DNA of 64,000 nt from Spirochaetales bacterium (GTDB lineage: Bacteria; Spirochaetota; Spirochaetia; SZUA-6): assembly GCA_027021365.1 (NCBI GenBank), contig JALUUM010000008.1, positions 2,804 to 66,803 on the forward strand. The letters are read 5' to 3'. Under the pieces are notes generated by a model. The model was given only the letters and a program-made list of their open reading frames with translations, was not told the DNA's origin and ran no database searches. A program made the translations under genes and the position numbers. Positions 1-48,864 of the stretch are shown in pieces. The stretch's first letter is position 1. Every line of letters begins with the position of its first letter.

Positions 1-1580
1 TGTGGATCCAGTCTTGATAAGAGAAAAACTAACTTATGTAATACCCCCATAGGGAAAGCACCAGAACCCACAGCAGGGTCCAATACCTTTAAATTATTAA
101 TGGATTCAATAACTAAATCAGTTTCCTCATCGGTAAAAGGATTAAGCTCGCTATTAGATGAAAATAAATCCTCTAACTTCTCATTGAAATTAACTATCTT
201 ATTATCAAGCTTTGCTCTAAAATATTCTTTCAAAGATTGTTCAACCATATAATTTACAATAGGCCGAGGTGTGTAATAACTCCCTGTCGTCTTTCTCGCT
301 GTAGTTGCTGTTTCAGGGTTATAACTGGCTAGTAGGTTTTCAAAAACTCTCCCTAACAGTTCAGGATCTAGTGCAACCTCTTCGTCATCCGGTGTATTTT
401 CATCAATTGTAAAATTATAAGAGCTTAAAATTGTTATTAATCCCCTTACGCGATATTTTTTCTCCTTTGTACCGTAATCGGAATTTAGATCTTCCTTTCT
501 CTCATCTGAAAAAAACAAATAATTAGGCACATTCGGTTGTTTAGAAGGGACATCAGAAAATCCATCAATCCTAATTTCTCTTCCTGTCTCATTTGATGGA
601 TCCTTTTTCGCTTTATCCAAACATTCGAATAAACCACCATTCAAGAAAGGGATATCCTTAAAAAGCAAAACCATGTCATCCGGATTTTTAAAAAGAGAAG
701 AGTATCTGTAATAGCTATGATTCATATAATCATCATTATAAAAATTATTTTTCCGTTCTTCAGTTCTAAACTTTCTCTCTTTTATGGGTATATTCAAAGT
801 AGCAAAGAAAAGATTCTGCAGTATAGCTTTATAGTAATTATTATCTTCATCAGAGAAGGATTTTAAATATTTAGAAATTTTACTTTTATTAAAAAGCTCA
901 TCTCCAATTAATCCCTTTTGCTTCATAAACCAAACAAATATCAGTCTTGTAATCAATCTTATAACTGCTATATTTCTGCCATTCTGTTCTTTTTCTGCAT
1001 CCCTGGGAAACTTTACTTTTTTTAATGCCCAAAAATACCAGTTAGCTATCTCTCTATAAAACGCTTCTGTTACTTTTTCTACACTAAAAGCTTCTTTTAA
1101 ACTATCCAGACTGGAAAAATCAGCTTCTTCAATCTGATGAATAAATGTTTTATTTGTCTCATTCCTACTAACATAATAAGTATACCTTTTAAAATTGCTC
1201 CAATCTCTTTTGCCGCCCTCTTTGGGAATATCATAAATTAATGAAAAACGAAAACTTCCTTCATCATCATAAAAAATAAATATTCCACCGGAATATTCAA
1301 TTTTATCTTTAAGTATACTTTTACCAATTTTGTATTGCTTCTTTTTACCAGAGCGCTCAGTAAGTTTTCTATTAACTTTAAAGGCATATATGCAAATCTT
1401 TTCATCAATCGATAAATCTATTTCACCTACATTTAGTCCATTACCAAAATCCTCATCTTCACCAATCTGAATCTCTTCGTTAATTGGTCGGAACCTGCGA
1501 CTTTTAATTCTAAAAAGATTGCTTAACTTTTCAGTTTCAAAATCTTGTATTAAATCCTCAATCACCTCTCGCACAGACAT
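1..1580 (-). CDS. N6-adenine DNA methyltransferase, PglX / type IIG (Eco57I-like) family; N-terminal ~526 aa only, 3' end lies beyond the window start
   Basis: Minus-strand ATG at 1578-1580 overlaps the TAA stop of the upstream helicase gene (TAATG). My translation of the reverse complement is open to position 1. It contains RLITRLIFVWFMKQKGLI (the RLIFxxFxExGLL-type helix of type IIG/PglX enzymes), TGSYYTPRPIV (motif X, YTP) and, about 65 aa later, LDPAVGSGAFPMG (motif I, DPAxGSG). Order X then I fits a gamma-class N6A methyltransferase. Not in the ORF track because it is incomplete. Confidence 0.6.
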   Translation of the reverse strand, partial: MSVREVIEDLIQDFETEKLSNLFRIKSRRFRPINEEIQIGEDEDFGNGLNVGEIDLSIDEKICIYAFKVNRKLTERSGKKKQYKIGKSILKDKIEYSGGIFIFYDDEGSFRFSLIYDIPKEGGKRDWSNFKRYTYYVSRNETNKTFIHQIEEADFSSLDSLKEAFSVEKVTEAFYREIANWYFWALKKVKFPRDAEKEQNGRNIAVIRLITRLIFVWFMKQKGLIGDELFNKSKISKYLKSFSDEDNNYYKAILQNLFFATLNIPIKERKFRTEERKNNFYNDDYMNHSYYRYSSLFKNPDDMVLLFKDIPFLNGGLFECLDKAKKDPSNETGREIRIDGFSDVPSKQPNVPNYLFFSDERKEDLNSDYGTKEKKYRVRGLITILSSYNFTIDENTPDDEEVALDPELLGRVFENLLASYNPETATTARKTTGSYYTPRPIVNYMVEQSLKEYFRAKLDNKIVNFNEKLEDLFSSNSELNPFTDEETDLVIESINNLKVLDPAVGSGAFPMGVLHKLVFLLSRLDP

Positions 1581-4500
1581 TACAATTCTCCTGCTTCATT
1601 TTTATTTCTATTCTCAATAGCAATTATTATTTCTTTTTTAAGCTCTTTGATCCTTGATTTTTCTTTCTCAAGATAATTTTCTCCAAGCTCATCCATTAAA
1701 CTTTTAAGTTCGTTTACAACTTTTTCCAAATTATCAGTTTTGATGTTTGCAATCCTTCGGAGAGTATAATCTGAGAGGGTTCCATATTCGACAATATCCT
1801 CTCTAAGACTTCTTAAAAATCTTTTAAACCTAAGCAACTCGTTATCGTTGTTTACTCTTATTAGATACTGGAGATTATTTAATGCTTTTCTCTCTAAGCT
1901 TTGTTCACTGATAGCTATTGAGACATTTTCTTTATAATCCTTAATCAATTTATAGTTTTTCCAGAAATAACTGCTAAGCGGAATTGCTTTTTCCTCTGGT
2001 CCACATTCTATATTTTCAATTACATCTTCAAGTGTTACATCTTTAGGTTTTTTATCCTTCTCTCCCAGTTCCACTATATACATACGACTTTTCCTAAAAA
2101 ATACCAGCAATTTATTTTTATCAAAATATTTTGCTACTTTTATACGTGGCGGAAAACTGTTAAGGCCTTTAATCAAATTAGGATATTCTTTCTTTATATT
2201 TTCAAATATATTCAGAATTTTTGTATACAAACTTTCCATCTCAAGATTATCTGGATTTTCCTGCAGCCGTTGATATAAACCGGATGGAGTTGGTTCCTCA
2301 TCTATATCAAATATCTTAGAATCCTCACCAAGAGCATTATGAATGAGGAACATTTTGTTCTGAGCAATTTCCCTCGACTTAACTATTTCAGCCCCCTCTT
2401 CAGTGGGAAAGAAATTAACAATATAAAGTTCGTCGAATATTTTCTTACTTATCCTGTTAATGCGGCCAAGCCTTTGAATAACTCGTACAGGATTCCACGG
2501 TATATCGTAGTTTACTATTATTCCTGCCCTATTAAGATTAAAACCTTCAGAAATCTTATCAGTACATAAGAGAATATCATGATCATTTTCCTGCTCTGGA
2601 TAAGAAGCATCAAAGTTTTTATATATCTTTTCCGCTTTTGAAGTACTTAAATCTGAGCTTATAACAAGTAATCTATCACCAAAAGCTTTTCTAAGCTTAT
2701 TTTCTAAATATTTTACTGTATCTAAATATTCAGAAAAAATAATTACTTTTCTATCTGGTTCTTCTCTTCGCAATTTGTTTAATTTTTCTATTAAACATTT
2801 GCTTTTCGGATCATTATTTACAAGAGCTAAACTGGAAAGTTTCTTTAAAATTTTTTCAAATAATTCTATATCGGATTTTATATCCTGGACAAATTTTTCT
2901 TTATATCTAAATTTCTCAATTTTATAACGCTTATGCTTCTTTGGATAAACACCATTCCTTATCTGTTCCTCATAATCTAAAAGATATTTTTCTATTTCAT
3001 CCGTATCCAATTGGTATATTTTCTCTAGCAGTGTACGATCTAAAATATATTCACCTTTATACGGGTTACCATCTCCTGTCTTTATTATAAAATCCAAAGC
3101 ATCTTCATATATTTTTTTAAAATTTCTTATGCTCTGCTCAAAGGCACCAAAGGAACTTTCAAATCTCTTGACAATCAGTCTCCTCATGAAATCAAAAAGG
3201 TTTCTTTGCTGATAGAACTCACGATTTTTTTCTAATTTGGAAATTCCTTTGTTATTATTTATTACATCATCATTATAATTCTGCGCCCCCTCTTCATATT
3301 CAAAGGGTCTATAAATTGCTCCCTTGAATTTTCCTCCATTATCAGGATCCCCAAAATATTCCTTAATAATATCATCGTAAAAATAAGATTGTTCTCTTGT
3401 TAATTCAAAAAACCATTCCTTAGGATCTGCAACTTTTGACAGATTATCAACTTCATCCTTGTAATATGGATTGTATAGTAAATCAAGGCGATTTCTTCTA
3501 ATCGTAATTGGCTCTATTACATCTCTTATTTGCTTAGCAAGATAGTGTGTTCTAGCCTTTACTTTTTTTAAATCAATTTTCTTTTCACCAAATAAGGCAA
3601 AATAATATGATTCAGCTTTTTTTCTTTTCTTTAGGTCTTTAGAATTCCAATTCTTATAAATATAACCTAATTTATAGAATATAGTCTTAAATATTCTAAA
3701 TTTATTTACAATATCATCAGTTAGAGAAATCGAAGACTTTTTAGGAACTATAAAAAGTGAAATTAACGAGAGGATATCTGCTGGGCGATTATTGAAAGGA
3801 GTAGCTGTTAGGAGAATAACTATTCTACCTCGGCAAATATTTTTTAAGATTTCATAACTTTGTGTGTCCTGGTTTCTAAATCTATGTGCCTCATCTATAA
3901 TTATGACTTCTATTTCATCGTGAGCTTTTACAAATTCAAGAGTACTTTCTAAATCACCTAAAGATCTTACCTCCCAATCATGCAGACCAAATTCTTCCAT
4001 ATATTTCATCCACCCGGTTTTCTTATTTTTATCCCCAATAATACCAGGAGGACAGATTACAATTCCTCGTTTTCTTAATTGTTTTGCAATAGCACTGGCA
4101 ATTACAGATTTTCCTAACCCAACAACATCAGCAATAACAACACCATTATGGTTATCTATAACTGCTAATGCTTGTTGAACAGCATCAAGTTGATACCTAT
4201 ATGGTTTATAACCATTCTTCTCTAATAAATTTATTAATGTTTCACCAATTTCTTTTTGCTGAAAAGAATCTAAATAGCTTTTTAACACTAAACAGTAAGC
4301 TTCAAAGGGGGTAATCTCTTTTATTATGGTTTCATTTTCAATTAGTTTTATTAATCTTTTTTTTACTTCATTATCTTCTGTTATTTGGACTCCTTTTTCC
4401 CAAAGATCATCAAAATAATCCTCTGCATCTTCAAACCCATAATCAGAAATCTCAACATTAAATTCATCCTGTATTGTCAAACCTAATTTTGTTAAATTAC

Positions 4501-4969
4501 TGCTACCTGTAATGAAAAGGTTTCTTCTTCCAATCTGCTGAGATTCCAGTTTAAATAAATACAATTTAGCATGATTAGGATTATATGTTTTCCTTATTAT
4601 TAATCTATCTTCTTTGATAAGGTTTATAAAATATTTTATCTGTTCATAAAATTCTTCATTGTCAACATCATCAGAATTCAGTGTTTTTTTAACTGAGTTA
4701 AAAAAGAATTCTAACCTCTCCTCATCTGATAAATTATTTGTTTTCTCCCCATACTCTATTAATCCCAGATTAGTATTATCAACATTAAGACCAACCAATA
4801 CTTTTAAAATAACATTAGGATTATTTCTTAAACCTCTGTATAACTCCCGAATTCCAGAAAAGTAGAAAAAACCTACAAGAAATTTAAGTTCTTCACTTCC
4901 TCCAATTAATTCTAAAAGGCGTTTTTTTAGGTTCTTATTTGTACTATTATTTGTAATAAAATTTGGCAT
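1580..4969 (-). CDS. PLD-family nuclease fused to an SNF2-family helicase (1129 aa)
   Basis: N-terminus has NPNHAKLYLF...ITGSSNLT (HxK...GSxN PLD/HKD motif). Helicase motifs DVVGLGKSV (I), IIIDEAHRFRN (II, DEAH), LLTATPFNN (SNF2 motif III) and QRLGRINRIS (VI). Start ATG lies 3 nt after the stop of the upstream gene; stop overlaps the start of the methyltransferase gene. Confidence 0.85.
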   Translation of the reverse strand: MPNFITNNSTNKNLKKRLLELIGGSEELKFLVGFFYFSGIRELYRGLRNNPNVILKVLVGLNVDNTNLGLIEYGEKTNNLSDEERLEFFFNSVKKTLNSDDVDNEEFYEQIKYFINLIKEDRLIIRKTYNPNHAKLYLFKLESQQIGRRNLFITGSSNLTKLGLTIQDEFNVEISDYGFEDAEDYFDDLWEKGVQITEDNEVKKRLIKLIENETIIKEITPFEAYCLVLKSYLDSFQQKEIGETLINLLEKNGYKPYRYQLDAVQQALAVIDNHNGVVIADVVGLGKSVIASAIAKQLRKRGIVICPPGIIGDKNKKTGWMKYMEEFGLHDWEVRSLGDLESTLEFVKAHDEIEVIIIDEAHRFRNQDTQSYEILKNICRGRIVILLTATPFNNRPADILSLISLFIVPKKSSISLTDDIVNKFRIFKTIFYKLGYIYKNWNSKDLKKRKKAESYYFALFGEKKIDLKKVKARTHYLAKQIRDVIEPITIRRNRLDLLYNPYYKDEVDNLSKVADPKEWFFELTREQSYFYDDIIKEYFGDPDNGGKFKGAIYRPFEYEEGAQNYNDDVINNNKGISKLEKNREFYQQRNLFDFMRRLIVKRFESSFGAFEQSIRNFKKIYEDALDFIIKTGDGNPYKGEYILDRTLLEKIYQLDTDEIEKYLLDYEEQIRNGVYPKKHKRYKIEKFRYKEKFVQDIKSDIELFEKILKKLSSLALVNNDPKSKCLIEKLNKLRREEPDRKVIIFSEYLDTVKYLENKLRKAFGDRLLVISSDLSTSKAEKIYKNFDASYPEQENDHDILLCTDKISEGFNLNRAGIIVNYDIPWNPVRVIQRLGRINRISKKIFDELYIVNFFPTEEGAEIVKSREIAQNKMFLIHNALGEDSKIFDIDEEPTPSGLYQRLQENPDNLEMESLYTKILNIFENIKKEYPNLIKGLNSFPPRIKVAKYFDKNKLLVFFRKSRMYIVELGEKDKKPKDVTLEDVIENIECGPEEKAIPLSSYFWKNYKLIKDYKENVSIAISEQSLERKALNNLQYLIRVNNDNELLRFKRFLRSLREDIVEYGTLSDYTLRRIANIKTDNLEKVVNELKSLMDELGENYLEKEKSRIKELKKEIIIAIENRNKNEAGEL

Positions 4970-4971
4970 AT

Positions 4972-5766
4972 TTATTTCCTCTTAATAAAATCTATATCCG
5001 TTTCTTTGCACTTTCTCTTTGTCTGGTCAAAGGTTACAGGGGAATAGTAGGTGCCCGGGTCCTGATATATATCCAGGCCACGGCCAGGAATAATCCTCCA
5101 GCCTTTATCAGTTTCTATCGAACGGTCATGAAGCTTGTCATCGAACTCATATTTAAAATTTATGTTGAGCTCATCCAGGGCCTTTTTTAGCTCTTCAAGC
5201 TTGTGTATCTGTTTCTCTTTTTCTTCTTCTGTAGATTCGTGCCCTGTAACCAGAGTAACCTCTATTCTTTCTTCACCAGGTTTCTTATCCGGTAAGATAC
5301 TACAGAAGGCAACAAGATTTTTTATCTGGTACTCTTTTCTAATGTAGGCATCTCTTATAATAATTCTACACGCATCCTTAATGTATGGATAAAAGAGGTT
5401 CTTATAGGAGTATCCTGTTTCATTCTCACTAATTCTAATTGTCATCTCCTCCGGCTCCCTGTAAGGATCAAGTTTTCCCTCCAATGGTTTTTCAGGTTGG
5501 CTTTTAGGTCTTTCGCCGCTTTCTTCTAAGGTTTTCCCTTTTTCTGTTAAGTTGTCACCTGCTTTCCCTACTATCTCTTTTACCCTGCCTATTTTCCCAT
5601 CTTCAAGTTTAACCATTATCCCATACGGATGAAATTGAGCTTTTGTAAGTATCTCGCTAACCACTCCTTCGAAGGTATTGCCGCTTCTATAGTCTCCCTT
5701 TAAAGCAATTCTAACTTTAAGCCCAGGCGAGATGTTGTCTCTGTAATTGCCCCGATCGTCAGGCAT
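4972..5766 (-). CDS. YwbE/DUF2196-like N-terminal domain fused to an uncharacterised C-terminal domain (264 aa); first gene of the defence-like operon
   Basis: Residues ~15-65, KVRIALKGDYRSGNTFEGVVSEILTKAQFHPYGIMVKLEDGKIGRVKEI, match the small YwbE (TIGR03833-like) fold as I remember it. The C-terminal half contains HDRSIETDKGWRIIPGRGLDIY, reminiscent of an MIT_C / degenerate PLD-like fold; uncertain. Followed by an AT-rich promoter-like region at 5767-5876. Confidence 0.45.
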   Translation of the reverse strand: MPDDRGNYRDNISPGLKVRIALKGDYRSGNTFEGVVSEILTKAQFHPYGIMVKLEDGKIGRVKEIVGKAGDNLTEKGKTLEESGERPKSQPEKPLEGKLDPYREPEEMTIRISENETGYSYKNLFYPYIKDACRIIIRDAYIRKEYQIKNLVAFCSILPDKKPGEERIEVTLVTGHESTEEEKEKQIHKLEELKKALDELNINFKYEFDDKLHDRSIETDKGWRIIPGRGLDIYQDPGTYYSPVTFDQTKRKCKETDIDFIKRK

Positions 5767-5876: not shown

Positions 5877-6497
5877 TTACTTCCACACAAGGTCGAGAAA
5901 GAGCGATGTGGCTGCTACAGATTCACCTTCTATAAACATATAATTGGCAGCGATGCCGATATCCAGGCCAAAGCCGGTGTATTTGTTCAAAAGGTCGTAA
6001 GCTGCAAAGAGCTTTACCCCGTAACCGAAAGAACTTACTGTAGATGTTCCGACATTGGAGACCGCGACTATTCTTGAAAGCCCTGCACAACTTCCCAGGG
6101 AAAGGCCTCTGCCAAAGGGATAGTACTTTATACCGGGGGCAAAGAGATAAGTATTTAACTGCATGTAATAACCGTAAACGTCTTCTAAACGATCACCGAT
6201 TCCAGTTGCAGACAGTAAAAAATAGGCGTTACCAGTAATGTACCAGCCTAAATTGACATTCAGCATAAGAGAGCCCCTTTGAAGGCCATAAGAGGCTATG
6301 TAAGCAAGGTATGCATCTGTATCCGATCCATAACTTAGCCCCACCATGCCTCCGCCAATCTCAAAGAGGAAACCCCGCTTTTTCTCGATTGACTCTGGTG
6401 AGTCCAATGGGTCTGACAATTGGTCGGAACTAACGTATTCGCTCCCGCCCACCAGTAACAGCGAGAGAACAATCACCACTAAATTAAACCTCTTCAT
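5877..6497 (-). CDS. putative outer-membrane beta-barrel protein with signal peptide (206 aa)
   Basis: N-terminal hydrophobic signal (MKRFNLVVIVLSLLLVGGS). Gly/Tyr/aromatic-rich alternating pattern typical of small OM barrels. No specific family recognised. Confidence 0.4.
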   Translation of the reverse strand: MKRFNLVVIVLSLLLVGGSEYVSSDQLSDPLDSPESIEKKRGFLFEIGGGMVGLSYGSDTDAYLAYIASYGLQRGSLMLNVNLGWYITGNAYFLLSATGIGDRLEDVYGYYMQLNTYLFAPGIKYYPFGRGLSLGSCAGLSRIVAVSNVGTSTVSSFGYGVKLFAAYDLLNKYTGFGLDIGIAANYMFIEGESVAATSLFLDLVWK

Positions 6498-6955
6498 TAT
6501 AAAACCTCCTATTCTAACAAATCCGAAATACGTAAACTGAACTGCAAAATCTGTACCAGGGCATTAAGGATGGCTCAAACCGGTGTTATCGAGGATAAGA
6601 GATATTTTGCTTATAAAAAAATGAAACTTTAGTTTCTCCGGAAGTAACTGAAGTTATTTTAAATAGTTGAAAAAGGTTGTAACTTTAAAAGAATAAAGAT
6701 TGGTTGTATTAATCCCAGGATTCTAAGCTCACCTTTTCCCACTCATCATTTATAATTTTATCTTCATTAGAAGTGTATTTGTAGCCTTCAATGAGAATCT
6801 TATCTAATTTCCGAAGATCTTCATTAGTCATAATTTAATATACATACTCTGCTCATAAGATACCATCGGTTTCTTGATCAACCCAACAATTATTGTTAAT
6901 ATTTCAATCCCTACAAATTATAGTTCACTCTAAAATATTTAAGAGGAGTTTTCTT

Positions 6956-7363
6956 ATGTCACAGGAAAAGGTAAGAGAGATAATTAGCGATTCCCAGTTT
7001 GCAGTTCTTGCAACCTCAGTAGATGGGCAGCCCAGGGTAAGGCCCATGAAGTTTGTTGTAACCGATGACTTTAAGTTCTGGTGTTCAACAGTCAACATAA
7101 GCGGGAAGGTTAAAGAGTTAAAACAGAACAACAGGGTGGAAATATGCTGGGTGGACAGTAAAAAGAATCAAGTTAGAGTAGAGGGAATAGTCGATATAAG
7201 CGGCGGTGCAGATAAAAAGAGAAAGCTCTTCGAACTGCATCCCGGGATGCGGAGGCTGTTCAAGGACGAGTACGATCCCAAGCTTGTTCACGTGGAGGTC
7301 GTTCCTACCAATGTAAGATGGAAGGAACCGGGCTTCTGCGAATATCACAAGGTTGATATTTAG
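6956..7363 (+). CDS. pyridoxamine 5'-phosphate oxidase-like FMN-binding protein (general stress protein 26 type)
   Basis: MSQEKVREIISDSQFAVLATSVDGQPRVRPMKF... matches the PNPOx-like split-barrel pattern. AGGAG RBS 8 nt upstream of the ATG at 6956; the ORF-track start at 6893 lacks an RBS. Confidence 0.6.
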   Translation: MSQEKVREIISDSQFAVLATSVDGQPRVRPMKFVVTDDFKFWCSTVNISGKVKELKQNNRVEICWVDSKKNQVRVEGIVDISGGADKKRKLFELHPGMRRLFKDEYDPKLVHVEVVPTNVRWKEPGFCEYHKVDI

Positions 7364-7415: not shown

Positions 7416-7850
7416 TTGCAAAAGCCACTTCTTTATCTTAAAGTAATTAAAGTGAAGGATACAATCGACATAGTAAAGGAAATAATCAACTCGAAAAGAG
7501 GGATAACTTTAGCCATTCTCTATGGCTCGTTTGCCACAGGAAGAATCACTCCCGGCAGTGATATCGATATTGCAGTAGCGGCCAAAAACCCTATGTCTCC
7601 GGAAGAACTTGCAGAGATCAACCTGGAAATATCTGAAAAAACAGGAAGAAATACCGATGTAGTGGATTTAAACAGGGCAGAAGGAATTCTACTGAAAGAG
7701 ATTCTAACCAAGGGTAAACTTTTAAAAAAAGAAGACAGTAATCAGTATGCCAAGTTTATCATAAAGATGTTGGATTATCAGGAAGACATGGCTCCAAATG
7801 TAAGGCACATACTCAATACGAAAGTAAAAAGGTTTCTAAAAAATGGATGA
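7416..7850 (+). CDS. minimal nucleotidyltransferase (MNT, MntA-like antitoxin of HEPN/MNT modules)
   Basis: GSFATGRITPGSDIDIAV is the Pol-beta-type GS...DxD NTase signature. The gene overlaps the downstream HEPN gene by 8 nt. Confidence 0.75.
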   Translation: MQKPLLYLKVIKVKDTIDIVKEIINSKRGITLAILYGSFATGRITPGSDIDIAVAAKNPMSPEELAEINLEISEKTGRNTDVVDLNRAEGILLKEILTKGKLLKKEDSNQYAKFIIKMLDYQEDMAPNVRHILNTKVKRFLKNG

Positions 7851-8085
7851 TGTAGTTTTAAATAAACTGGAATCTCTTACACGTTGTATAGGGAGGATAG
7901 AATCAAAACAACCTTTTTCCGTAGAACAATTAAAAAATAATTATGACTTGCAAGATATCATTTCCATAAACTTAGAAAGAGCAATTCAACTGTGTGTGGA
8001 TATTGGTTCTCACATTCTGGCTATAAAAAACTTGCCTGCTCCAAATTCCTTAAGAACCACCTTTAAAACCCACGTGGAAACATAA
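7843..8085 (+). CDS. HEPN (HepT/DUF86-like) protein, apparently C-terminally truncated (80 aa)
   Basis: NLERAIQLCVDIGSHILA aligns with the central helix of HepT. The protein stops before the expected RNxxxHxY (Rx4-6H) catalytic motif, and no frame downstream restores it. Confidence 0.55.
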   Translation: MDDVVLNKLESLTRCIGRIESKQPFSVEQLKNNYDLQDIISINLERAIQLCVDIGSHILAIKNLPAPNSLRTTFKTHVET

Positions 8086-8171
8086 GTAACTTCGGTTACT
8101 TTTCTCGTAACCGGAGTTATGAAGAAAACGGCAATAGATATGTAATCAGGCATTACAAGGGCATTTCAAGT

Positions 8172-10034
8172 ATGCTTTCGCTGTGGCACGTATCATGCTT
8201 ACAGATTTGTGTCATGACATCCACCGGAATCACAGAAAAGCCAGTATCAATGGGAAACCAAATTTCAAAGCTCACAGAAAAGCTAAAGCAAATCCCAAGG
8301 GAGGAGCTCCTGGCTTCGCCGGGCTTATGGATAAGAATTGGGAGTTTTTATATCCTCAACTATGAAGATTCCAAAGGGAATCGATCGAAGAGGCTTGTAA
8401 AGGCATACGGTGTAAGCAACAACTGGAAGGGTATCGGGTCCGGAGGCTCTTATTACGGGAAAACCAGTTATTACGGCGGCAAGAATCAACTTTATTTGAA
8501 GACCTACTGTTACCTGAAAGAGGATAACAGAACCTTCAGGTTGGACAGAATTGTCTCTATATACAAGGCAGACTCGCTTTTGGCCTCCGGGTACCAGGCC
8601 TGGGAAGTCCAGGCGGCTTTGAACTTGAACAGGGGAGCGACCGCAGAGGCCGGGTATGCGCCGGCCAGTAAGAGGCATCCGCCTGTACAGCAGGATACGC
8701 CTGCCAGCGAGAAGGTATCGGCAGGCAAGGACTACCTGCCGGCACAGCAGGTAACGGCACAGCAGGATACGTTGGCCCGAAAGAGATACCTGCCGGCACA
8801 TCGGGGTAAATTCGTCTGCAAGCGCTATATACCCAAAATGGCTGACACGGTGAAGGCGGTTTCTGCCTACCTGGATGAGAGTGACCCGGACATACCAAAT
8901 ATAAAGGAACAAAAACGTAGAGAGAAGGCTGCCAAAAGGGCCGAGAGAAGAAACAAGATTTTCAACTTTATTATTGGCCTTTCTGCCTTTCTGCTGTTCA
9001 TGAACTGGGGATACTTCCAGGAACTCTTTACAGGTATCGTGGAGTTAGTAATCGACGAAGTCACGCCACCCTACAACCATAGCGTAAAACCACCGGTCGA
9101 TAGCACGAATCAAAATCAAATCTCCTACGAGAAGATAGAAAAAATCATAGAGGAGCTGGAGAAGGAGAGGCAGAAAAGCCTGAACAATAACAATAAAAAG
9201 GTAAAACCATTCAGTTTGGAAGATATTCCCGATATAGACCCGGAAACCATAGCATCGTACAGAGAGGTGGTGGCAAGTATCAACAAGTCTGTCGGGAAAA
9301 TCCAGCACCAGGAAAATAAGAAAAATCAACAAAATCGGAAGGGGAAGCAGAAGAGGCCAAGGGCATTAAGGGTGGTAAGAGAAATCGAGTACAGGGGTAT
9401 TACCATACAGGAGGTCGATACCGAATATGGAAAAAGATATTTGGCACCGGAACTGTCGATGGAGAACTTTTCACTCGATTACATGAAAGAAGAAATAAAC
9501 GATTACCTCTTTAGGGAAAAAACCGGAATAGACGATTTAAGTGTTCTTATCCTCTACAAGAGTGCCGATGAGAACGGGGACTTCCGATTATCGTGGGACG
9601 AAATACAGGATTTTCAAAATGAACTTTACCGAAACTACAAGTACAAGTCGAATCCAATTGCACTGCGGCCGGACCAGTTTATAGAACAGGATGGCGGCGA
9701 CTGTGAAGATTGGGCATTAATGACCGCCGGGCTTCTTAGATACTGGGGTTACACACCGTATATCGGAACACTTGCATATTATCAAAGGGCGAATCCTGGC
9801 CATGCCCTCTGTCTCTTATACTCTACGACTCCGCCCCCTTCAGGCATGGACTACCTGCATATAAGGGAGAATGATCCCCTGCGCACTTTTAATTCTGATG
9901 TAAAGCCAGGTTACTATGTGCCAATTGATTACACTGTGGTAGGTGGATACTCAAGGGTAATAACAGCTTCAGGTTACAAATGGTACTATGACATGATATA
10001 CGTACCGGAAAAAATCTATGGAATGGTGATGTAA
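8172..10034 (+). CDS. multidomain membrane protein: N-terminal WYL-like domain, one TM helix, coiled-coil, EF-hand-like loop, C-terminal transglutaminase-like cysteine-protease core
   Basis: LYLKTYCYLKEDNRTFRLDRIVSI matches the WYL...R.FRLDRI signature. A single hydrophobic helix IFNFIIGLSAFLLFMNWGYF is preceded by a K/R-rich stretch (N-in). DENGDFRLSWDE is an imperfect EF-hand loop. GGDCEDWAL...LLRYWGYTPYIG...GHALCLL matches the GxCxxFA...R..G.P.R...H transglutaminase-like triad. The true start may be the Met at 8250. Confidence 0.6.
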   Translation: MLSLWHVSCLQICVMTSTGITEKPVSMGNQISKLTEKLKQIPREELLASPGLWIRIGSFYILNYEDSKGNRSKRLVKAYGVSNNWKGIGSGGSYYGKTSYYGGKNQLYLKTYCYLKEDNRTFRLDRIVSIYKADSLLASGYQAWEVQAALNLNRGATAEAGYAPASKRHPPVQQDTPASEKVSAGKDYLPAQQVTAQQDTLARKRYLPAHRGKFVCKRYIPKMADTVKAVSAYLDESDPDIPNIKEQKRREKAAKRAERRNKIFNFIIGLSAFLLFMNWGYFQELFTGIVELVIDEVTPPYNHSVKPPVDSTNQNQISYEKIEKIIEELEKERQKSLNNNNKKVKPFSLEDIPDIDPETIASYREVVASINKSVGKIQHQENKKNQQNRKGKQKRPRALRVVREIEYRGITIQEVDTEYGKRYLAPELSMENFSLDYMKEEINDYLFREKTGIDDLSVLILYKSADENGDFRLSWDEIQDFQNELYRNYKYKSNPIALRPDQFIEQDGGDCEDWALMTAGLLRYWGYTPYIGTLAYYQRANPGHALCLLYSTTPPPSGMDYLHIRENDPLRTFNSDVKPGYYVPIDYTVVGGYSRVITASGYKWYYDMIYVPEKIYGMVM

Positions 10035-10090: not shown

Positions 10091-10249
10091 CTATTCCTCA
10101 TCCTGCTTGTTCAGGTATTTTTCCGGCTCCTTTTCAAAGGCCTTCATGCAGCCGGGAGCGCAGAAATAGTAGGTTACGCCGTTGTACTCGGTTTTGAACT
10201 TAGCCGTTTTTTCATCCACTTCCATCAGGCATACCGGATCTATCGCCAT
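10091..10249 (-). CDS. YHS-domain metal-binding protein (52 aa)
   Basis: MAIDPVCLMEVDE...YYFCAPGCMKAFEKEP is the YHS/TRASH motif. AGGAGG RBS upstream of the ATG. The ORF-track start at 10351 is probably too long. Confidence 0.65.
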   Translation of the reverse strand: MAIDPVCLMEVDEKTAKFKTEYNGVTYYFCAPGCMKAFEKEPEKYLNKQDEE

Positions 10250-10380
10250 CTTAAAACCTCCTAAGAATATTATATCATTTATTATAATAATAAAACATTT
10301 ATAGTCAACCATAACTTTTGCTGATGTAATAATATTGACTATTATTATCATATTTATTAAATTGCCCTTGAGGTTTGATT

Positions 10381-10491
10381 ATGAAGGATTTCTGCAAGCC
10401 AGGATCATCGGAACCAGGACCATCAATGACAGAATCATCAGCGCAAGACTCTTCAAGGCCAGGATCCCCAGAGCCAGGGGTTGAACTATGA
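10381..10491 (+). CDS. possible 36-aa leader ORF overlapping the FTR1 start (ATGA overlap)
   Basis: ATG...TGA frame ends at 10489-10491 and overlaps the ATG at 10488. Encodes MKDFCKPGSSEPGPSMTESSAQDSSRPGSPEPGVEL with internal KPGSSEPG/RPGSPEPG repeats. Too short to verify. Confidence 0.2.
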   Translation: MKDFCKPGSSEPGPSMTESSAQDSSRPGSPEPGVEL

Positions 10492-11333
10492 TAGAAGGTT
10501 TCATAATACTTTTCCGGGAAACACTGGAAGCTTCTCTTGTAATAGGAATAGTCATAGCAACTTTCAAACGCCAGGGGATAAAGGACTTTCACGGCACGGT
10601 CTATTCAGCCATTCTTCTTGCCATCCTTTCAAGCATAGCGGGAGCTTTCCTCTTTGACAGGCTGGCAGGCGGCTTTACAGGTAAGGGCGAACAGATATTC
10701 GAAGGCCTGGTAATGATAGTTAGCGCCGTGCTTTTGACAACGATGATAATCTGGATGCTGAAGAATAGCAATCAAGGTAGGGAACTCCGGAGAAAGCTCA
10801 ATGAAAGGATATCCTCCACCTACAAGCTCGGCGTGTTCTTTCTTGTTTTTACGGCTATCTTGAGAGAGGGAATCGAGGCAGTACTCTTTCTTTCCGCTGC
10901 AAATTTCGCAACCGGAAATAACAACCTCACGGGTGCCCTCCTTGGCATGGCTGCTGCAGTCGCCTTTTCCATACTGTTCCTAGCAGGAACATGGCGTCTC
11001 AATATAAGAGTATTCTTTACCGTTATCAATATTACCCTGATACTCTTTGCATCGGGCCTTTTCTCCAGCGGGATACACGAGCTCCAGGAAGCGGGCTGGA
11101 TTCCCGTACTCCGCGAAGATGTTTTCAATATAAATCCGCCCGTCCTGCCAGACGGAAGCTATCCACTCCTCCACGAGAAGGGATACATAGGCAGTATCGC
11201 CAAGGGCCTCTTTGGATACAACGGTAACCCCAGCCTGCTCGAACTTGCCGGGTACGCCTTCTACATAGTCTCAGCTTCATTTGCATGGCTAAAGATATCA
11301 AGAATCGAGAAAAAGAGACTTTCCGGTTCCTGA
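10488..11333 (+). CDS. FTR1/EfeU-family high-affinity iron permease
   Basis: Two RExxE motifs (FRETLEAS and LREGIEAV) in a 7-TM protein of 281 aa. Confidence 0.75.
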   Translation: MIEGFIILFRETLEASLVIGIVIATFKRQGIKDFHGTVYSAILLAILSSIAGAFLFDRLAGGFTGKGEQIFEGLVMIVSAVLLTTMIIWMLKNSNQGRELRRKLNERISSTYKLGVFFLVFTAILREGIEAVLFLSAANFATGNNNLTGALLGMAAAVAFSILFLAGTWRLNIRVFFTVINITLILFASGLFSSGIHELQEAGWIPVLREDVFNINPPVLPDGSYPLLHEKGYIGSIAKGLFGYNGNPSLLELAGYAFYIVSASFAWLKISRIEKKRLSGS

Positions 11334-45595: not shown

Positions 45596-46347
45596 AAATA
45601 GTAAAAGAGAAAAAAACCGCATTACAAATTCTTATAATGATTACAGCAATTATCTATTCTATTTGGGTACTTCTCTATCTAGCAAGTTTCTTTTTATATT
45701 CTGATTTTTTTAACAAATTGCATGCTAGTCTTTATGTTTCAATCGGATTTACTGTAATTGGTGTAGTATCTGTGTCAATTACAGCAACCATGATAGTTAA
45801 GCTCAAGCGAGATCCCTTTGCAATTTTTTCTGTTTTTATAATAGGTGGAAGACTTATCAATTTTATTGCAGCTTACCTTTTCTCTAAATTAACAAAGAAT
45901 TCATTTTTTATGCTTCCCTTCGGCAACCCTGATTTTTTTATCTTCTATTTTCTTTTAATAGGTTCTTATACCTTTATACGTAAGTCTGTTCTCCCAGAAA
46001 AAAAGTATGGTTTTCAAGCTCTATCCCTCTTTTCCTTGTTGTTTCTCGCATCCCCTATATTTTTCCATGTAATAGGAAAAGAAATAACTGTTATTTCAGT
46101 TTATTCCATTTTTTATACTCTCATTCCTATAGCGGCTATACTGGTAGCACCTTATAATACAAATCTTAGGAGCTTAAGGTTAATAATAATTTCTGTAATT
46201 ACTGCTGCATTCTTTGATATGCTTATTTATCTTAAGTTTACAGAATGGGATATTCCTCCTGATCTAAATTACCTTCTGCTTCCCTATTCCTTGCTAATTC
46301 TGACTGCCAGTGTAATACGTAGAGAAGAGGAGATTGCTAATGGTTGA
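45589..46347 (+). CDS. polytopic membrane protein (about 7 TM), hypothetical
   Basis: Hydrophobic helices throughout; overlaps both neighbouring genes. Confidence 0.5.
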   Translation: MVKIVKEKKTALQILIMITAIIYSIWVLLYLASFFLYSDFFNKLHASLYVSIGFTVIGVVSVSITATMIVKLKRDPFAIFSVFIIGGRLINFIAAYLFSKLTKNSFFMLPFGNPDFFIFYFLLIGSYTFIRKSVLPEKKYGFQALSLFSLLFLASPIFFHVIGKEITVISVYSIFYTLIPIAAILVAPYNTNLRSLRLIIISVITAAFFDMLIYLKFTEWDIPPDLNYLLLPYSLLILTASVIRREEEIANG

Positions 46348-47032
46348 GGCCGTGTATTTTGGAACATTAATCCCCCTTCTTTTTCTCGTTGTAGTGATAC
46401 ACGGGGAATATCGTAAGCTGATACTGTTCTTTGTATGGGGTTTAACTTCTGCAATTATTATTTATCTAATCAATACTCTGATAGACATATACATTGTACC
46501 GGATGAAACACTTCTTTTAACACAGATAATACCACTAATGGAAGAATTTTTAAAAATATTCCCGATCTTTTTCTTGATAAGGAAGAAAGGAAAGGTATAT
46601 CGGTACAATATCATACGTTTTGCAATGGCATCGGGAATAGGCTTTTCTATATTGGAAAACTATCTTTATCTTTCTATCTCTGCTTTTCCAGGAGTGAGAG
46701 GAAGCATTGTTTTTATAATCACCAGAAGTTTAACAGCCAGTCTACTTCATGGTTCAACTACAGCTTTAATCGGTTATGCAGTTCAGATAATGCATAATTA
46801 CAATTTCTTCTCATTTTTTCTTTTACTAGGTATATATCTTTTGGCAGTCTCAATACATTCAACCTATAATCTATTAGGATTAACAAAAGGATTGCAAGTT
46901 GCGGCAATTCTAATTCCAATTGTCCTTTTTATGTTAGAATATTATCTGTTCAATTTTTTTGGTCGGAAAGGTGTTCGACAAAACAGTTTGAGTATTCCTG
47001 TAAAGTCGGAAATTAAAGGCGGTATTAAATGA
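46334..47032 (+). CDS. PrsW-family intramembrane protease-like protein
   Basis: EEFLK (EExxK), GIGFSILENYLY (GFxxxEN) and LLHGSTTALIG motifs within a polytopic membrane protein. Confidence 0.55.
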   Translation: MLMVEAVYFGTLIPLLFLVVVIHGEYRKLILFFVWGLTSAIIIYLINTLIDIYIVPDETLLLTQIIPLMEEFLKIFPIFFLIRKKGKVYRYNIIRFAMASGIGFSILENYLYLSISAFPGVRGSIVFIITRSLTASLLHGSTTALIGYAVQIMHNYNFFSFFLLLGIYLLAVSIHSTYNLLGLTKGLQVAAILIPIVLFMLEYYLFNFFGRKGVRQNSLSIPVKSEIKGGIK

Positions 47033-48864
47033 GCGAGGATTATTATTTTAAAAAAATATTTTATTTGCTCACGGTAGTAATGGGAGCCGTATTATCACTA
47101 TCACTTTCCGGGTGTAAAGAATTGAGTATTGGCATAGAAAAGGTAGAACAGGGTAATATTGTTTTTGTAGATTTTATTAATGCAACGAAAATACGAGGCG
47201 GAAATGAAGGTTTGATAGATTTCGGAGGAAAAACTATCGGAATGGGTGAGAAAGACGTGCAGATTTTAAGAATAAAGAATTCAGGTGCCGGGAATCTTGC
47301 AATTAATAATATGTTTTTTAGAGGGGAAATGTTTAATTTTGTGGAAGGTATCAATCCTGATTTTCCAATTACTATTCCCCCCGGTAAAACTATTGATATT
47401 TATTTAGAGTTCAATCCCCAAAAAGGGGGGGAGGAAAAAGGCCAGTTTTTTATTGACACAGGATCTGCTATCCATGACTTTGATCTTGTCGGCATCGGGC
47501 TGTGGGTGCTTACAATATCGATCCCGAATACCGGAGCTGATAGTAATTGTACAATTGAATCTCCAGGTACAATCAATCCCGGTGAAACAAAAGTTTTTAC
47601 ATCCGAGACAGGTGTTTTTACGCTTAAATGTGTTCCGGACATGCTTTACGAGTTCGTTCAGTGGACAATAGATGGCACTCCGGATGCTTCGCCTGTATTT
47701 GAAAATGTAAATGCAAAAGAAACCACAGTTGTTTTATACAGTCATACTTCGATACACGCTACGATAAACAGTCCTTTCGTTAGGGTGCCGGATGACGAGG
47801 CAAATATCAATACCGCAATATCGACTGCAAGCAGTGCAGGACAATCAGTAGTAATAAGAGCCGGTACTTATGATGTTAACTATGACATAAACCTGCTTCC
47901 CGGAGTACCTGTTTATGGGGGATACAATACCACAGGTACACCCTGGACAGAGAGAAACTACAAAACAGCAGCAGACAGAACAGATTCAACCTACGCAACA
48001 ATTATAAACTTTACTGATACCACATCAAACATAAAATCCGGTGCAGGAATTAACAATGACGTAGTATTCGAAGGGTTTACTGTTCAGCGAAGTTCTGGAA
48101 GCAGCACCCCTCTTATCTCTTTAACTTCTGATACAAAAACTGTTGTCCGATACAATACACTTTTAGGAAATGGCGCCGGTGCCGCTGTAGAATTCAATGG
48201 AGCTTCCGCTTTAATCTCGGATAATGTGATAACAGGCGGAACAGGAGCTGCAGTTTATATTACCAACTATTCTTCTCCCCGTGTTGAAAACAATACCATA
48301 ACAGGCGGAACTAATTCCACCGATTATGAGCTTACTTATGGAATTAAAATATCAGAAAACAGCAACCCTGTAATCTATAAGAATACTGTCTCCGGAGGGA
48401 CTTCCTCCGGGACAGGGGGTCAGGCATACGGGATATCTGCAGATTTTGAATGCGAGCCAGAAATAATTGGCAATACAATAAGTGGCGGTTCAGCAACGGG
48501 GAATGACAGCAAAACGTATGGGATTTATTTGATCAACAATGGGAATGGGACAATCGGATACAACGATATCAACGGAAGCAATGGAAAATCTATGGCCTTC
48601 GCTGTATACGTTGCCTACGGCGGAAATCTCTATCTTGACTACAACAATATTTACACGACAGGCGGTTCTGACAGATACGGTATTTATATTGCTCAGGGGG
48701 GAAGAGTAAGGAGATTACTAAATAATGGGATGTACGATGCTTCTACAGCTCTGGTATTCGATTTTTTTAACGGGTCTTTTGATACGATAGATGATGTAAA
48801 TAACTATTTTCGTACCGACACAAATCTGGGTTATAGAATTGATATAACAATCCCTGTTTATTAA
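47029..48864 (+). CDS. lipoprotein with right-handed parallel beta-helix (pectate-lyase-like PbH1) repeats
   Basis: Lipobox LSLSGC. Many repeats of the type NNxITGGTxxA / VSGGTSSG / ISGGSATG. Confidence 0.6.
   Translation: MSEDYYFKKIFYLLTVVMGAVLSLSLSGCKELSIGIEKVEQGNIVFVDFINATKIRGGNEGLIDFGGKTIGMGEKDVQILRIKNSGAGNLAINNMFFRGEMFNFVEGINPDFPITIPPGKTIDIYLEFNPQKGGEEKGQFFIDTGSAIHDFDLVGIGLWVLTISIPNTGADSNCTIESPGTINPGETKVFTSETGVFTLKCVPDMLYEFVQWTIDGTPDASPVFENVNAKETTVVLYSHTSIHATINSPFVRVPDDEANINTAISTASSAGQSVVIRAGTYDVNYDINLLPGVPVYGGYNTTGTPWTERNYKTAADRTDSTYATIINFTDTTSNIKSGAGINNDVVFEGFTVQRSSGSSTPLISLTSDTKTVVRYNTLLGNGAGAAVEFNGASALISDNVITGGTGAAVYITNYSSPRVENNTITGGTNSTDYELTYGIKISENSNPVIYKNTVSGGTSSGTGGQAYGISADFECEPEIIGNTISGGSATGNDSKTYGIYLINNGNGTIGYNDINGSNGKSMAFAVYVAYGGNLYLDYNNIYTTGGSDRYGIYIAQGGRVRRLLNNGMYDASTALVFDFFNGSFDTIDDVNNYFRTDTNLGYRIDITIPVY

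Follow-up and report, generated by a model that had tools for sequence, protein, structure and literature searches.

A family of unnamed proteins, mainly from Spirochaetota, joining a WYL domain to a membrane helix, an EF-hand loop and a predicted LapG-like cysteine protease

What might a WYL domain control when it is carried by a membrane protein? Nearly all known WYL domains are, to our knowledge, cytoplasmic and partnered with DNA-binding or nuclease domains. The question is raised by a gene in a 64-kb stretch of DNA from a Spirochaetales bacterium (64,000 nucleotides of contig JALUUM010000008.1, hereafter the window), the longest open reading frame (ORF) of which encodes 620 residues. A sequence-only reading of the locus had proposed that this protein combines a cytoplasmic WYL-like domain, a single transmembrane (TM) helix, an imperfect EF-hand loop and a transglutaminase-like Cys-His core, and had looked for its function in an adjacent MNT/HEPN pair and a nearby defence operon. 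The analysis described here upholds the architecture and leads away from that context.

With modest confidence, we read the protein as a bitopic inner-membrane, WYL-controlled and Ca2+-dependent periplasmic protease under the control of a CARF/sigma-54 activator, the neighbouring MntA/HepT′ and PNPOx genes being an unrelated insertion. The gene and the parts of its product are as follows.

8250-10034, + strand: gene for the WYL–TM–EF-hand–LapG-like putative protease (longest ORF 8172-10034, 620 aa; start probably M27, at 8250)
8328-8576, + strand: WYL domain, residues 53-135, an SH3/Sm-like beta-barrel with the RTFRLDRI motif, predicted to be cytoplasmic
8904-9014, + strand: juxtamembrane K/R-rich stretch (residues 245-262) and then the single TM helix (263-281), from hydropathy and a modelled AlphaFold helix at 244-278
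9369-10031, + strand: predicted extracytoplasmic folded domain, residues 400-620, with a small beta subdomain, one EF-hand and a transglutaminase/papain-like core
9567-9602, + strand: EF-hand calcium loop DENGDFRLSWDE, residues 466-477, from the family loop profile, the modelled helix-loop-helix and profile matches
9690-9929, + strand: predicted catalytic core with Cys511 (9702-9704), His544 (9801-9803) and Asp586 (9927-9929), from conservation and the model

Architecture and conservation of the family

An exhaustive phmmer search of 1.84 billion cluster representatives gave 217 relatives (190 at E<1e-10 and 98 at E<1e-30), mostly of 350-550 aa, with the matches falling in two stretches. Of the best 150, 74 have the WYL motif followed by a hydrophobic segment and then by GGDC[ED]D; the others are mostly fragments or WYL-less forms. 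An alignment of those 74 sequences was used for all the conservation and profile work below. The family was also recovered by a search with the trimmed alignment of the C-terminal domain; a word-indexed homologue search with the whole protein or with the full-length alignment returned the window protein only, for which the low-complexity linkers are probably to blame. A scan of the GTDB species representatives gave 22 confident loci, nearly all in metagenome-assembled genomes (MAGs) of Spirochaetota, from taxa that include Spirochaetales, Spirochaetia, Treponemataceae, Sediminispirochaeta and Alkalispirochaeta. The four closest relatives (P0002-P0005, at loci L035, L037, L039 and L041) are 40-53% identical to the window protein. 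All database homologues are unnamed or called 'hypothetical protein' and literature searches gave no description of them, in keeping with the earlier view that the architecture is undescribed. With its relatives the 620-aa protein makes up a conserved but unnamed family, mainly from Spirochaetota.

The WYL assignment was well founded. The PADLOC WYL-YodC model matches residues 53-131 of the window protein at 1.3e-10, the family profile matches the WYL domain of PafBC at 7.8e-14 and the WYL-carrying AAA ATPase 8bnv at 1.2e-9, with PafC also matched, and 73 of the 74 members match Pfam WYL (E<0.01, best 3.5e-15). Taken alone, the window protein reaches 21.5 bits against Pfam PF13280, where the cut-off is 21.8, the match covering the last 26 residues only. 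In the full-length AlphaFold model the barrel spans residues ~55-135 with a predicted local distance difference test score (pLDDT) above 90, and in Foldseek it matches PafBC, CapW, BrxR and DriD. A loop insertion rich in G, Y and S at residues 86-103 (8427-8480) is modelled with low confidence. Y64, C113, R120, F122, R123, D125 and R126 are invariant in the family, five of them lying in the RTFRLDRI motif at 120-127, and the invariance of this ligand-site motif suggests that a binding function is under selection. The barrel and its R-x-F-R-x-D-R-I motif are shared with PafBC, DriD, CapW and BrxR and with WYL-carrying Pif1-type ATPases (8BNV). Unlike the regulators in which the WYL domain stands between a helix-turn-helix (HTH) and a WCX domain, the family has neither HTH nor WCX, and its WYL domain leads into a disordered linker and then a membrane helix. 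Pfam scans of the window protein gave no HTH or WCX match; its residues 1-52 and 155-223 are of low confidence or disordered, and the model is disordered also at 293-315. Within the cytoplasmic linker (8730-8837) there are three short YLPA/YIPK-like repeats, and the DNA is locally GC-rich here (0.54-0.59). Long antisense ORFs in this gene, such as 8325-8912, are probably by-products of composition.

Exactly one hydrophobic segment is found in 71 of the 74 members. In the window protein it forms one helix at 263-281 (Kyte-Doolittle 19-residue maximum 1.53) behind the K/R-rich stretch at 245-262, as had been proposed, and the model shows one long helix at 244-278 that spans both. Lysine and arginine are together more frequent in the 15 residues before the helix than in the 15 after it in 56 of the 74 members, less frequent in nine and equal in nine. 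Homologues that lack the WYL domain carry a signal peptide in front of the EF-hand and Cys-protease domain: L016 7761-8642, on a Spirochaetia chromosome, and L019 7860-8453 and L023 149-802, from Bacteroidales and Rikenellaceae MAGs. As judged from these sequences, the enzyme module is also found as a free secreted protein. Because of the positive-inside pattern, the signal peptides on the WYL-less homologues and the periplasmic location of LapG (PMC4359373), the enzyme domain is predicted to lie outside the membrane. These observations agree with the N-in/C-out topology of the sequence-only reading, in which the WYL domain would be cytoplasmic.

Beyond the membrane, long helices at 319-338 and 357-387 lead in the model to the folded C-terminal domain. 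Modelled with AlphaFold2 from a 50-sequence alignment, residues 395-620 have a pLDDT of 94.3 and a predicted template modelling score of 0.91. The EF-hand loop was called imperfect, and the window loop DENGDFRLSWDE does have F in place of G at position 6, with every ligand position kept. Across the 74 members, position 1 is D in 73, position 3 is D or N in all, position 5 is D, N or S in all, position 6 is G in 48, position 8 is L or I in 73 and position 12 is E in 73. The loop is flanked by modelled helices at 456-463 and 475-488, and the family profile matches EF-hand calcium-binding proteins at 7e-6 to 1e-6, with about 12 members matching Pfam EF-hand models individually. The family loop is, by its residue pattern, a canonical EF-hand loop; there is one per protein, proposed to pack against the LapG-like domain, and no paired EF-hands were found in the family.

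The Cys-His core likewise stood up to analysis. In the window protein DGGDCEDWA lies at 507-515 and GHALCLL at 543-549; G508, G509, D510, C511, D513 and D586 are invariant, H544 is present in 73 of the 74 and position 512 is E or D in all of them. In the model Cys511 is at the N-terminus of a helix, a strand begins at His544 and the next core strand ends at Asp586, and this modelled placement is the arrangement expected for a transglutaminase fold. Pfam Transglut_core matches 43 members, and the window protein alone with an E of 4e-3. The BTLCP/LapG model PF06035 (Peptidase_C93) does not match the window protein and matches only two of the 74 members (best E 3e-4). LapG was nevertheless top rank in Foldseek with the full-length model, and the family profile matches LapG (4fgo) at 7e-4 to 1e-3, the match being confined to a segment of ~19 residues around GGDCED.

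It could be argued that a domain of this fold is not a protease at all, and is instead a transglutaminase cross-linker or a cell-wall endo-isopeptidase or amidase acting on peptidoglycan or lipoprotein, with the WYL domain serving as a mere cytoplasmic anchor or localisation module. This seems unlikely, given that LapG was the top match by three methods, that the GGDCED around the nucleophile is common to LapG, and that the invariant WYL motif points to a selected binding function.

A predicted sigma-54 promoter, paired dyads and a conserved gene module

The region upstream of the gene, and that of a second gene in the window, contain the following features.

8184-8199, + strand: sigma-54-type promoter-like site TGGCACGTATCATGCT, GG-N10-GC, 11/12 positions, 50 nt upstream of M27
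8086-8120, no strand: dyad pair GTAACTTCGGTTAC and GTAACCGGAGTTAT, 14 bp each and 21 bp apart, a predicted enhancer (upstream activating sequence)
5877-6497, - strand: gene for a 206-aa secreted beta-rich protein with an invariant C-terminal FLDLVWK, homologue of the divergent neighbour of the family gene in relatives
6543-6558, - strand: sigma-54-type promoter-like site TGGTACAGATTTTGCA, 10/12 positions, ending 45 nt upstream of the ATG of gene 5877-6497
6623-6657, no strand: second dyad pair GAAACTTTAGTTTC and GTAACTGAAGTTAT, starting at 6623 and 6644 and 21 bp apart, from the dyad scan

Scored against the sigma-54 consensus TGGCACG-N4-TTGCW, which has 12 specified positions, TGGCACGTATCATGCT ranks above every other site in the window, both strands counted, and no sigma-70-like site was found in 7903-9254. 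Since this site lies inside the 5′ extension of the longest ORF, since the N-termini of homologues align starting at M27 and since residues 1-31 of the 620-aa ORF have a pLDDT below 50, translation probably starts at M27. The start of the longest ORF at 8172 overlaps the promoter, and the annotated start should probably be moved to 8250.

The dyads at 8086 and 8107 start 98 and 77 bp upstream of the promoter site. All four dyads are of the GTAAC-N4-GTTAC type and start 66-99 bp upstream of one or other of the two promoters, and these are the only two dyad pairs in the window (shuffle mean 0.003). The two pairs align in register and their flanks are unrelated; a recent duplication by insertion was considered, and here too it is the dyads alone that align. 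The inverted repeat at 8087-8119 was also considered as a terminator of the toxin-antitoxin genes and rejected, as no T-run follows it and the same dyad pairs are found in relatives without MNT/HepT. One further combination, a dyad at 47584 with a sigma-54-like site at 47673, was judged to be a chance occurrence, both lying inside the coding sequence of a beta-helix protein. That region of the window (46334-48864) holds an ORF for a 232-aa PrsW-family intramembrane protease, followed by one for the 611-aa right-handed beta-helix protein.

The layout is found again in other genomes. Sites scoring 10-11 lie upstream of the family gene in all four closest relatives, and sites of at least 9/12 lie just upstream of it in L003, L004, L005, L008, L013, L014 and L022. 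The closest relatives (L035, L037, L039 and L041) have one central dyad pair between two divergent sigma-54 promoters; L003, L005, L008 and L014 have similar dyads upstream, in a partial layout. A dyad pair lies in or beside the upstream region of the family gene in nine of the other fetched loci; in L022 the sole pair is inside the called ORF, and the remainder have none. From the best sigma-54-like sites, the dyad pairs at both promoters and the conservation of this layout in relatives, we infer that the family gene and gene 5877-6497 belong to one sigma-54 regulon, whose dyads would be bound by an RtcR-like CARF activator.

Such an activator is the one recurrent neighbour that emerged when the neighbouring ORFs of the 22 GTDB loci were clustered. 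This sigma-54 activator begins with an RtcR-type CARF domain; its gene, often adjacent and divergent, lies near the family gene at nine of the 22 loci and in three of the four closest relatives. The activator's domains match Pfam RtcR, Sigma54_activat and HTH_8, and PADLOC RtcR_PspF2 at 1.8e-132; against the NCBIfam RtcR equivalog it reaches 345 bits, below the cut-off of 650. In the closest relatives the block reads PrsW-TPR protease ← RtcR-like activator ← secreted protein (213-253 aa) ←→ family gene → lipoprotein (~245 aa), the PrsW-TPR protease gene being linked in L035, L036, L037 and L041. In these close relatives the family gene is in a core-genome context, beside parAB, lspA and gyrA.

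The product of gene 5877-6497 is 42-47% identical to the divergent neighbour of the family gene in L035, L037 and L041. It has no match in Pfam, NCBIfam, PADLOC or the PDB, and may be a small outer-membrane barrel. The lipoprotein encoded downstream of the family gene in L035, L037, L039 and L041 has two internal repeats (…GFFQLF…FRTDNIS…) and is 84-92% identical between genomes over its C-terminal ~185-190 residues, far better conserved than the adjacent WYL-protease proteins. No family or PDB match was found for it, and it is a candidate substrate or partner of the predicted protease. Where relatives have the lipoprotein gene, the window has, directly downstream of the family gene (10091-11333), genes for a YHS-domain protein (- strand) and an FTR1 iron permease (+ strand), which are unrelated to the module.

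The MntA/HepT′ segment and the defence island

In the window the two divergent genes of the module are 1.75 kb apart, compared with 0.4-0.5 kb in relatives. Between them are a 40-aa ORF and three further genes, and to the left of the module lies a low-GC (0.30-0.34) BREX/DISARM-like island (1-5766), ~2.4 kb from the family gene.

6956-7363, + strand: PNPOx-like gene (Pfam PNPOx_N 3.9e-17)
7416-7850, + strand: MntA-type nucleotidyltransferase antitoxin (NCBIfam MntA_antitoxin NF047752, 88 bits, cut-off 60; Pfam Polbeta 3e-21)
7843-8085, + strand: HepT toxin remnant, 80 aa (matches positions 1-69 of 120 of the HepT_toxin model, 62 bits, cut-off 60)
running off the window start: Eco57I/TaqI_C-type methyltransferase of the island
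1580-4969, - strand: 1129-aa SNF2 helicase of the island, BrxH/DrmD-like
4972-5766, - strand: 264-aa DUF2196+MIT_C protein of the island, matching the C-terminal third of BrxL

The MNT/HEPN pair had been put forward as part of the functional context, with the HEPN partner truncated before its Rx4-6H motif and perhaps restorable by a frameshift. The truncation is real. MntA has an intact GSx10DxD motif, and the ORF of the HepT remnant overlaps the MntA ORF by 8 nt; the last dozen residues of the remnant (…NSLRTTFKTHVET) are not homologous to HepT. No HepT-like C-terminal continuation was found in any of the three frames downstream, so the catalytic half of HepT has been deleted, not frameshifted. 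As the catalytic Rx4HxY helix is absent from the HepT sequence, the pair is predicted not to be a functional type VII toxin-antitoxin system. The tail of the remnant (8053-8085) contains RTTFKTH, that is R71-x5-H77, a chance match to Rx4-6H that is not the catalytic motif and could mislead annotation.

A Logan assembly of SRR8439019 has the locus in two contigs, with a break between ~7812 and 8036, one contig ending in the 3′ end of MntA and the other beginning in the 5′ part of HepT′. The contig starting at 8036 agrees with the window over the stretch read and encodes an identical 620-aa protein. A strain-variable HepT junction at 8036 was rejected as an explanation since the second contig from the same sample ends at ~7812, which makes this an assembly gap, probably caused by paralogous MNT/HEPN copies.

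The sequence-only reading saw in the protein a defence effector or sensor working with the adjacent MNT/HEPN module or the BREX-like operon. The gene does adjoin MntA/HepT′ and lies close to the island, some relatives border defence genes as well (AbiE and BrxA in L037, an MNT fragment in L041), and defence regulators often contain WYL and CARF domains (PMC4012209). Against this, neither MNT/HEPN nor any other defence family recurs among the 22 clustered loci, and the gene tables of the four closest relatives hold no MNT/HEPN save one 79-aa MNT fragment ~4 kb away in L041. The HepT of the window is truncated, the gene of the close relatives stands in the core-genome context described above, and PADLOC, the activator aside, matches only the WYL domain of the family and, marginally, PrsW (E 0.007). 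We consider a role in partnership with these neighbours very unlikely. A stress or defence-type role is possible on other grounds, namely the CARF and WYL sensor domains.

Because MNT/HEPN does not recur at the relatives, and because the family gene there is directly divergent to the homologue of 5877-6497, the pair is best seen as a bystander. PNPOx–MntA–HepT′ separates the two control regions as an unrelated insertion would, with the MNT/HEPN part decayed. The island occupies the position held in relatives by the RtcR-like activator and the PrsW protease. On the far side of the module, L037 has AbiEi/AbiEii and BrxA with a transposase (1-2211), and L041 has DUF2283 with the MNT fragment (1303-2037); the flank of the module may be a recurrent integration spot.

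Proposed function and relation to known systems

How the parts might work together is suggested by the systems from which they are known. LapG is a periplasmic, Ca2+-dependent cysteine protease, and LapD–LapG is an inside-out signalling pathway (PMC4359373). The family C-terminal domain resembles LapG/BTLCP (PDB 4FGO) in its predicted transglutaminase-like fold and Cys-His-Asp triad, and DGGDCEDWA aligns with the GGGDCEDFA of 4fgo. It differs from LapG in being only 17-20% identical and in its predicted calcium site, a canonical EF-hand ~34 residues upstream of the Cys. For LapG itself, the acidic residues flanking the nucleophile (D-C-E-D) were reportedly implicated in calcium binding, in 2012 work by Boyd et al. 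and by Chatterjee et al. Sensor and putative protease would here be one polypeptide, unlike LapD–LapG, with the WYL domain replacing the GGDEF/EAL domains of LapD.

Single-stranded nucleic acid is the usual ligand of WYL domains. Single-stranded DNA is the ligand of several WYL regulators, including DriD and CapW (PDB titles 9c5g and 7tzv). Where the HTH-WYL-WCX regulators act on transcription, the output of the family would be an extracytoplasmic enzyme.

The activator linked in relatives resembles RtcR and RtcR_PspF-type activators in combining a CARF-like RtcR N-domain, a sigma-54 AAA+ domain and HTH_8. The CARF domain of RtcR responds to a nucleotide or RNA-damage signal (PMC9650030, PMC10159003). 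The predicted targets of the linked activator are, unlike those of RtcR, envelope proteins, and neither rtcA nor rtcB turned up in the annotated gene tables or among those neighbours that were compared with Pfam. Makarova et al. (2014) describe RtcR-like CARF activators that stand apart from Rtc operons, frequently close to restriction–modification systems, and list no membrane-anchored WYL protein or protease fusion (PMC4012209).

From these likenesses, the reading of the protein as a WYL-controlled periplasmic protease can be set out as a sequence of steps. A cytoplasmic nucleic-acid or nucleotide (RNA-damage) signal would activate the CARF enhancer-binding protein, which would induce the module. 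The WYL domain would bind a cytoplasmic ligand, most likely single-stranded nucleic acid, and oligomerisation across the membrane would tune the Ca2+-dependent periplasmic Cys protease. The protease would then cleave an envelope protein, for which the co-induced secreted protein and lipoprotein are obvious candidates. Inside-out signalling of the LapD–LapG kind would here be carried by one polypeptide.

Several points weigh against this reading. The membrane helix of the window protein is, at the value given above (1.53), the least hydrophobic of the family. On either side of the membrane the linker is long, varies across the family and is predicted to be disordered; rigid conformational coupling is therefore disfavoured, and ligand-driven oligomerisation is the likelier mechanism. 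There is no sigma-54 activator, rpoN, PrsW-TPR homologue or lipoprotein homologue within the window, and with activator and rpoN absent the regulation would act in trans or may have been lost. In the neighbourhoods, which are annotated in part, there was no sign of a LapA-like adhesin, LapD or type 1 secretion genes. For the family as a whole, the putative function would be a stress-induced, WYL-controlled periplasmic proteolysis.

Signalling could also run in the opposite direction, in the manner of DdvA, a single-pass anti-sigma factor with a periplasmic TPR-CHAT cysteine protease (PMC11506125). The periplasmic Cys protease would sense an envelope or Ca2+ cue and cut the linker in cis or in trans, PrsW would complete the release, and the freed WYL domain would act on the CARF protein or on nucleic acid. 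Like DdvA, the family protein has a regulatory domain in the cytoplasm, a single TM helix, an extended flexible linker in the periplasm and a predicted Cys protease at the far end, and it is linked to nucleic-acid or defence signalling; the linked PrsW-TPR gene in L035, L036, L037 and L041 and the presence of a transcription activator in the module would also fit. The two differ in fold (transglutaminase-like versus caspase/CHAT), in cytoplasmic domain (WYL versus anti-sigma) and in transcription machinery (sigma-54 with an enhancer-binding protein versus an extracytoplasmic function sigma factor). Neither an HTH nor any other output domain accompanies the WYL domain here, the WYL-less secreted homologues show the enzyme domain working alone, and the PrsW linkage is confined to four genomes and absent from the window. 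On balance we find outside-in signalling improbable.

Returning to the inside-out protease, a more specific version can be offered tentatively, as a possibility that we would not press. The family protein would be a self-contained signalling device at the core of a spirochaete envelope response not recognised before, in which the CARF/sigma-54 activator senses damaged or foreign nucleic acid, the WYL domain senses single-stranded nucleic acid on the inner side of the membrane and the Ca2+-dependent LapG-like protease cleaves a co-induced envelope protein, the outcome being detachment, remodelling or abortive infection.

Full-text literature gave no description of a WYL fusion to a transglutaminase-like, LapG or periplasmic cysteine protease, nor of an RtcR–PrsW module. 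TgpA, a polytopic protein, is not known to carry a WYL domain or an EF-hand. It is related by description, as an inner-membrane protein of Pseudomonas aeruginosa with a periplasmic transglutaminase domain (PDB 6G4H). The parts are thus known (WYL, EF-hand, BTLCP/LapG-like fold, CARF enhancer-binding protein), and the conserved architecture and the gene module appear to be new.

For annotation, the neighbouring MNT/HEPN pair is better regarded as the decayed remains of an insertion and not as a guide to function. Together, the conserved sigma-54 promoter, the enhancer formed by the dyads and the CARF activator would constitute a compact regulon. With a WYL domain coupled across the membrane to an enzyme outside the cytoplasm, the sensing of nucleic acid or nucleotides would reach as far as the cell envelope and its control, and Spirochaetota, a phylum in which envelope regulation is poorly understood, would have a single-chain counterpart of LapD–LapG.

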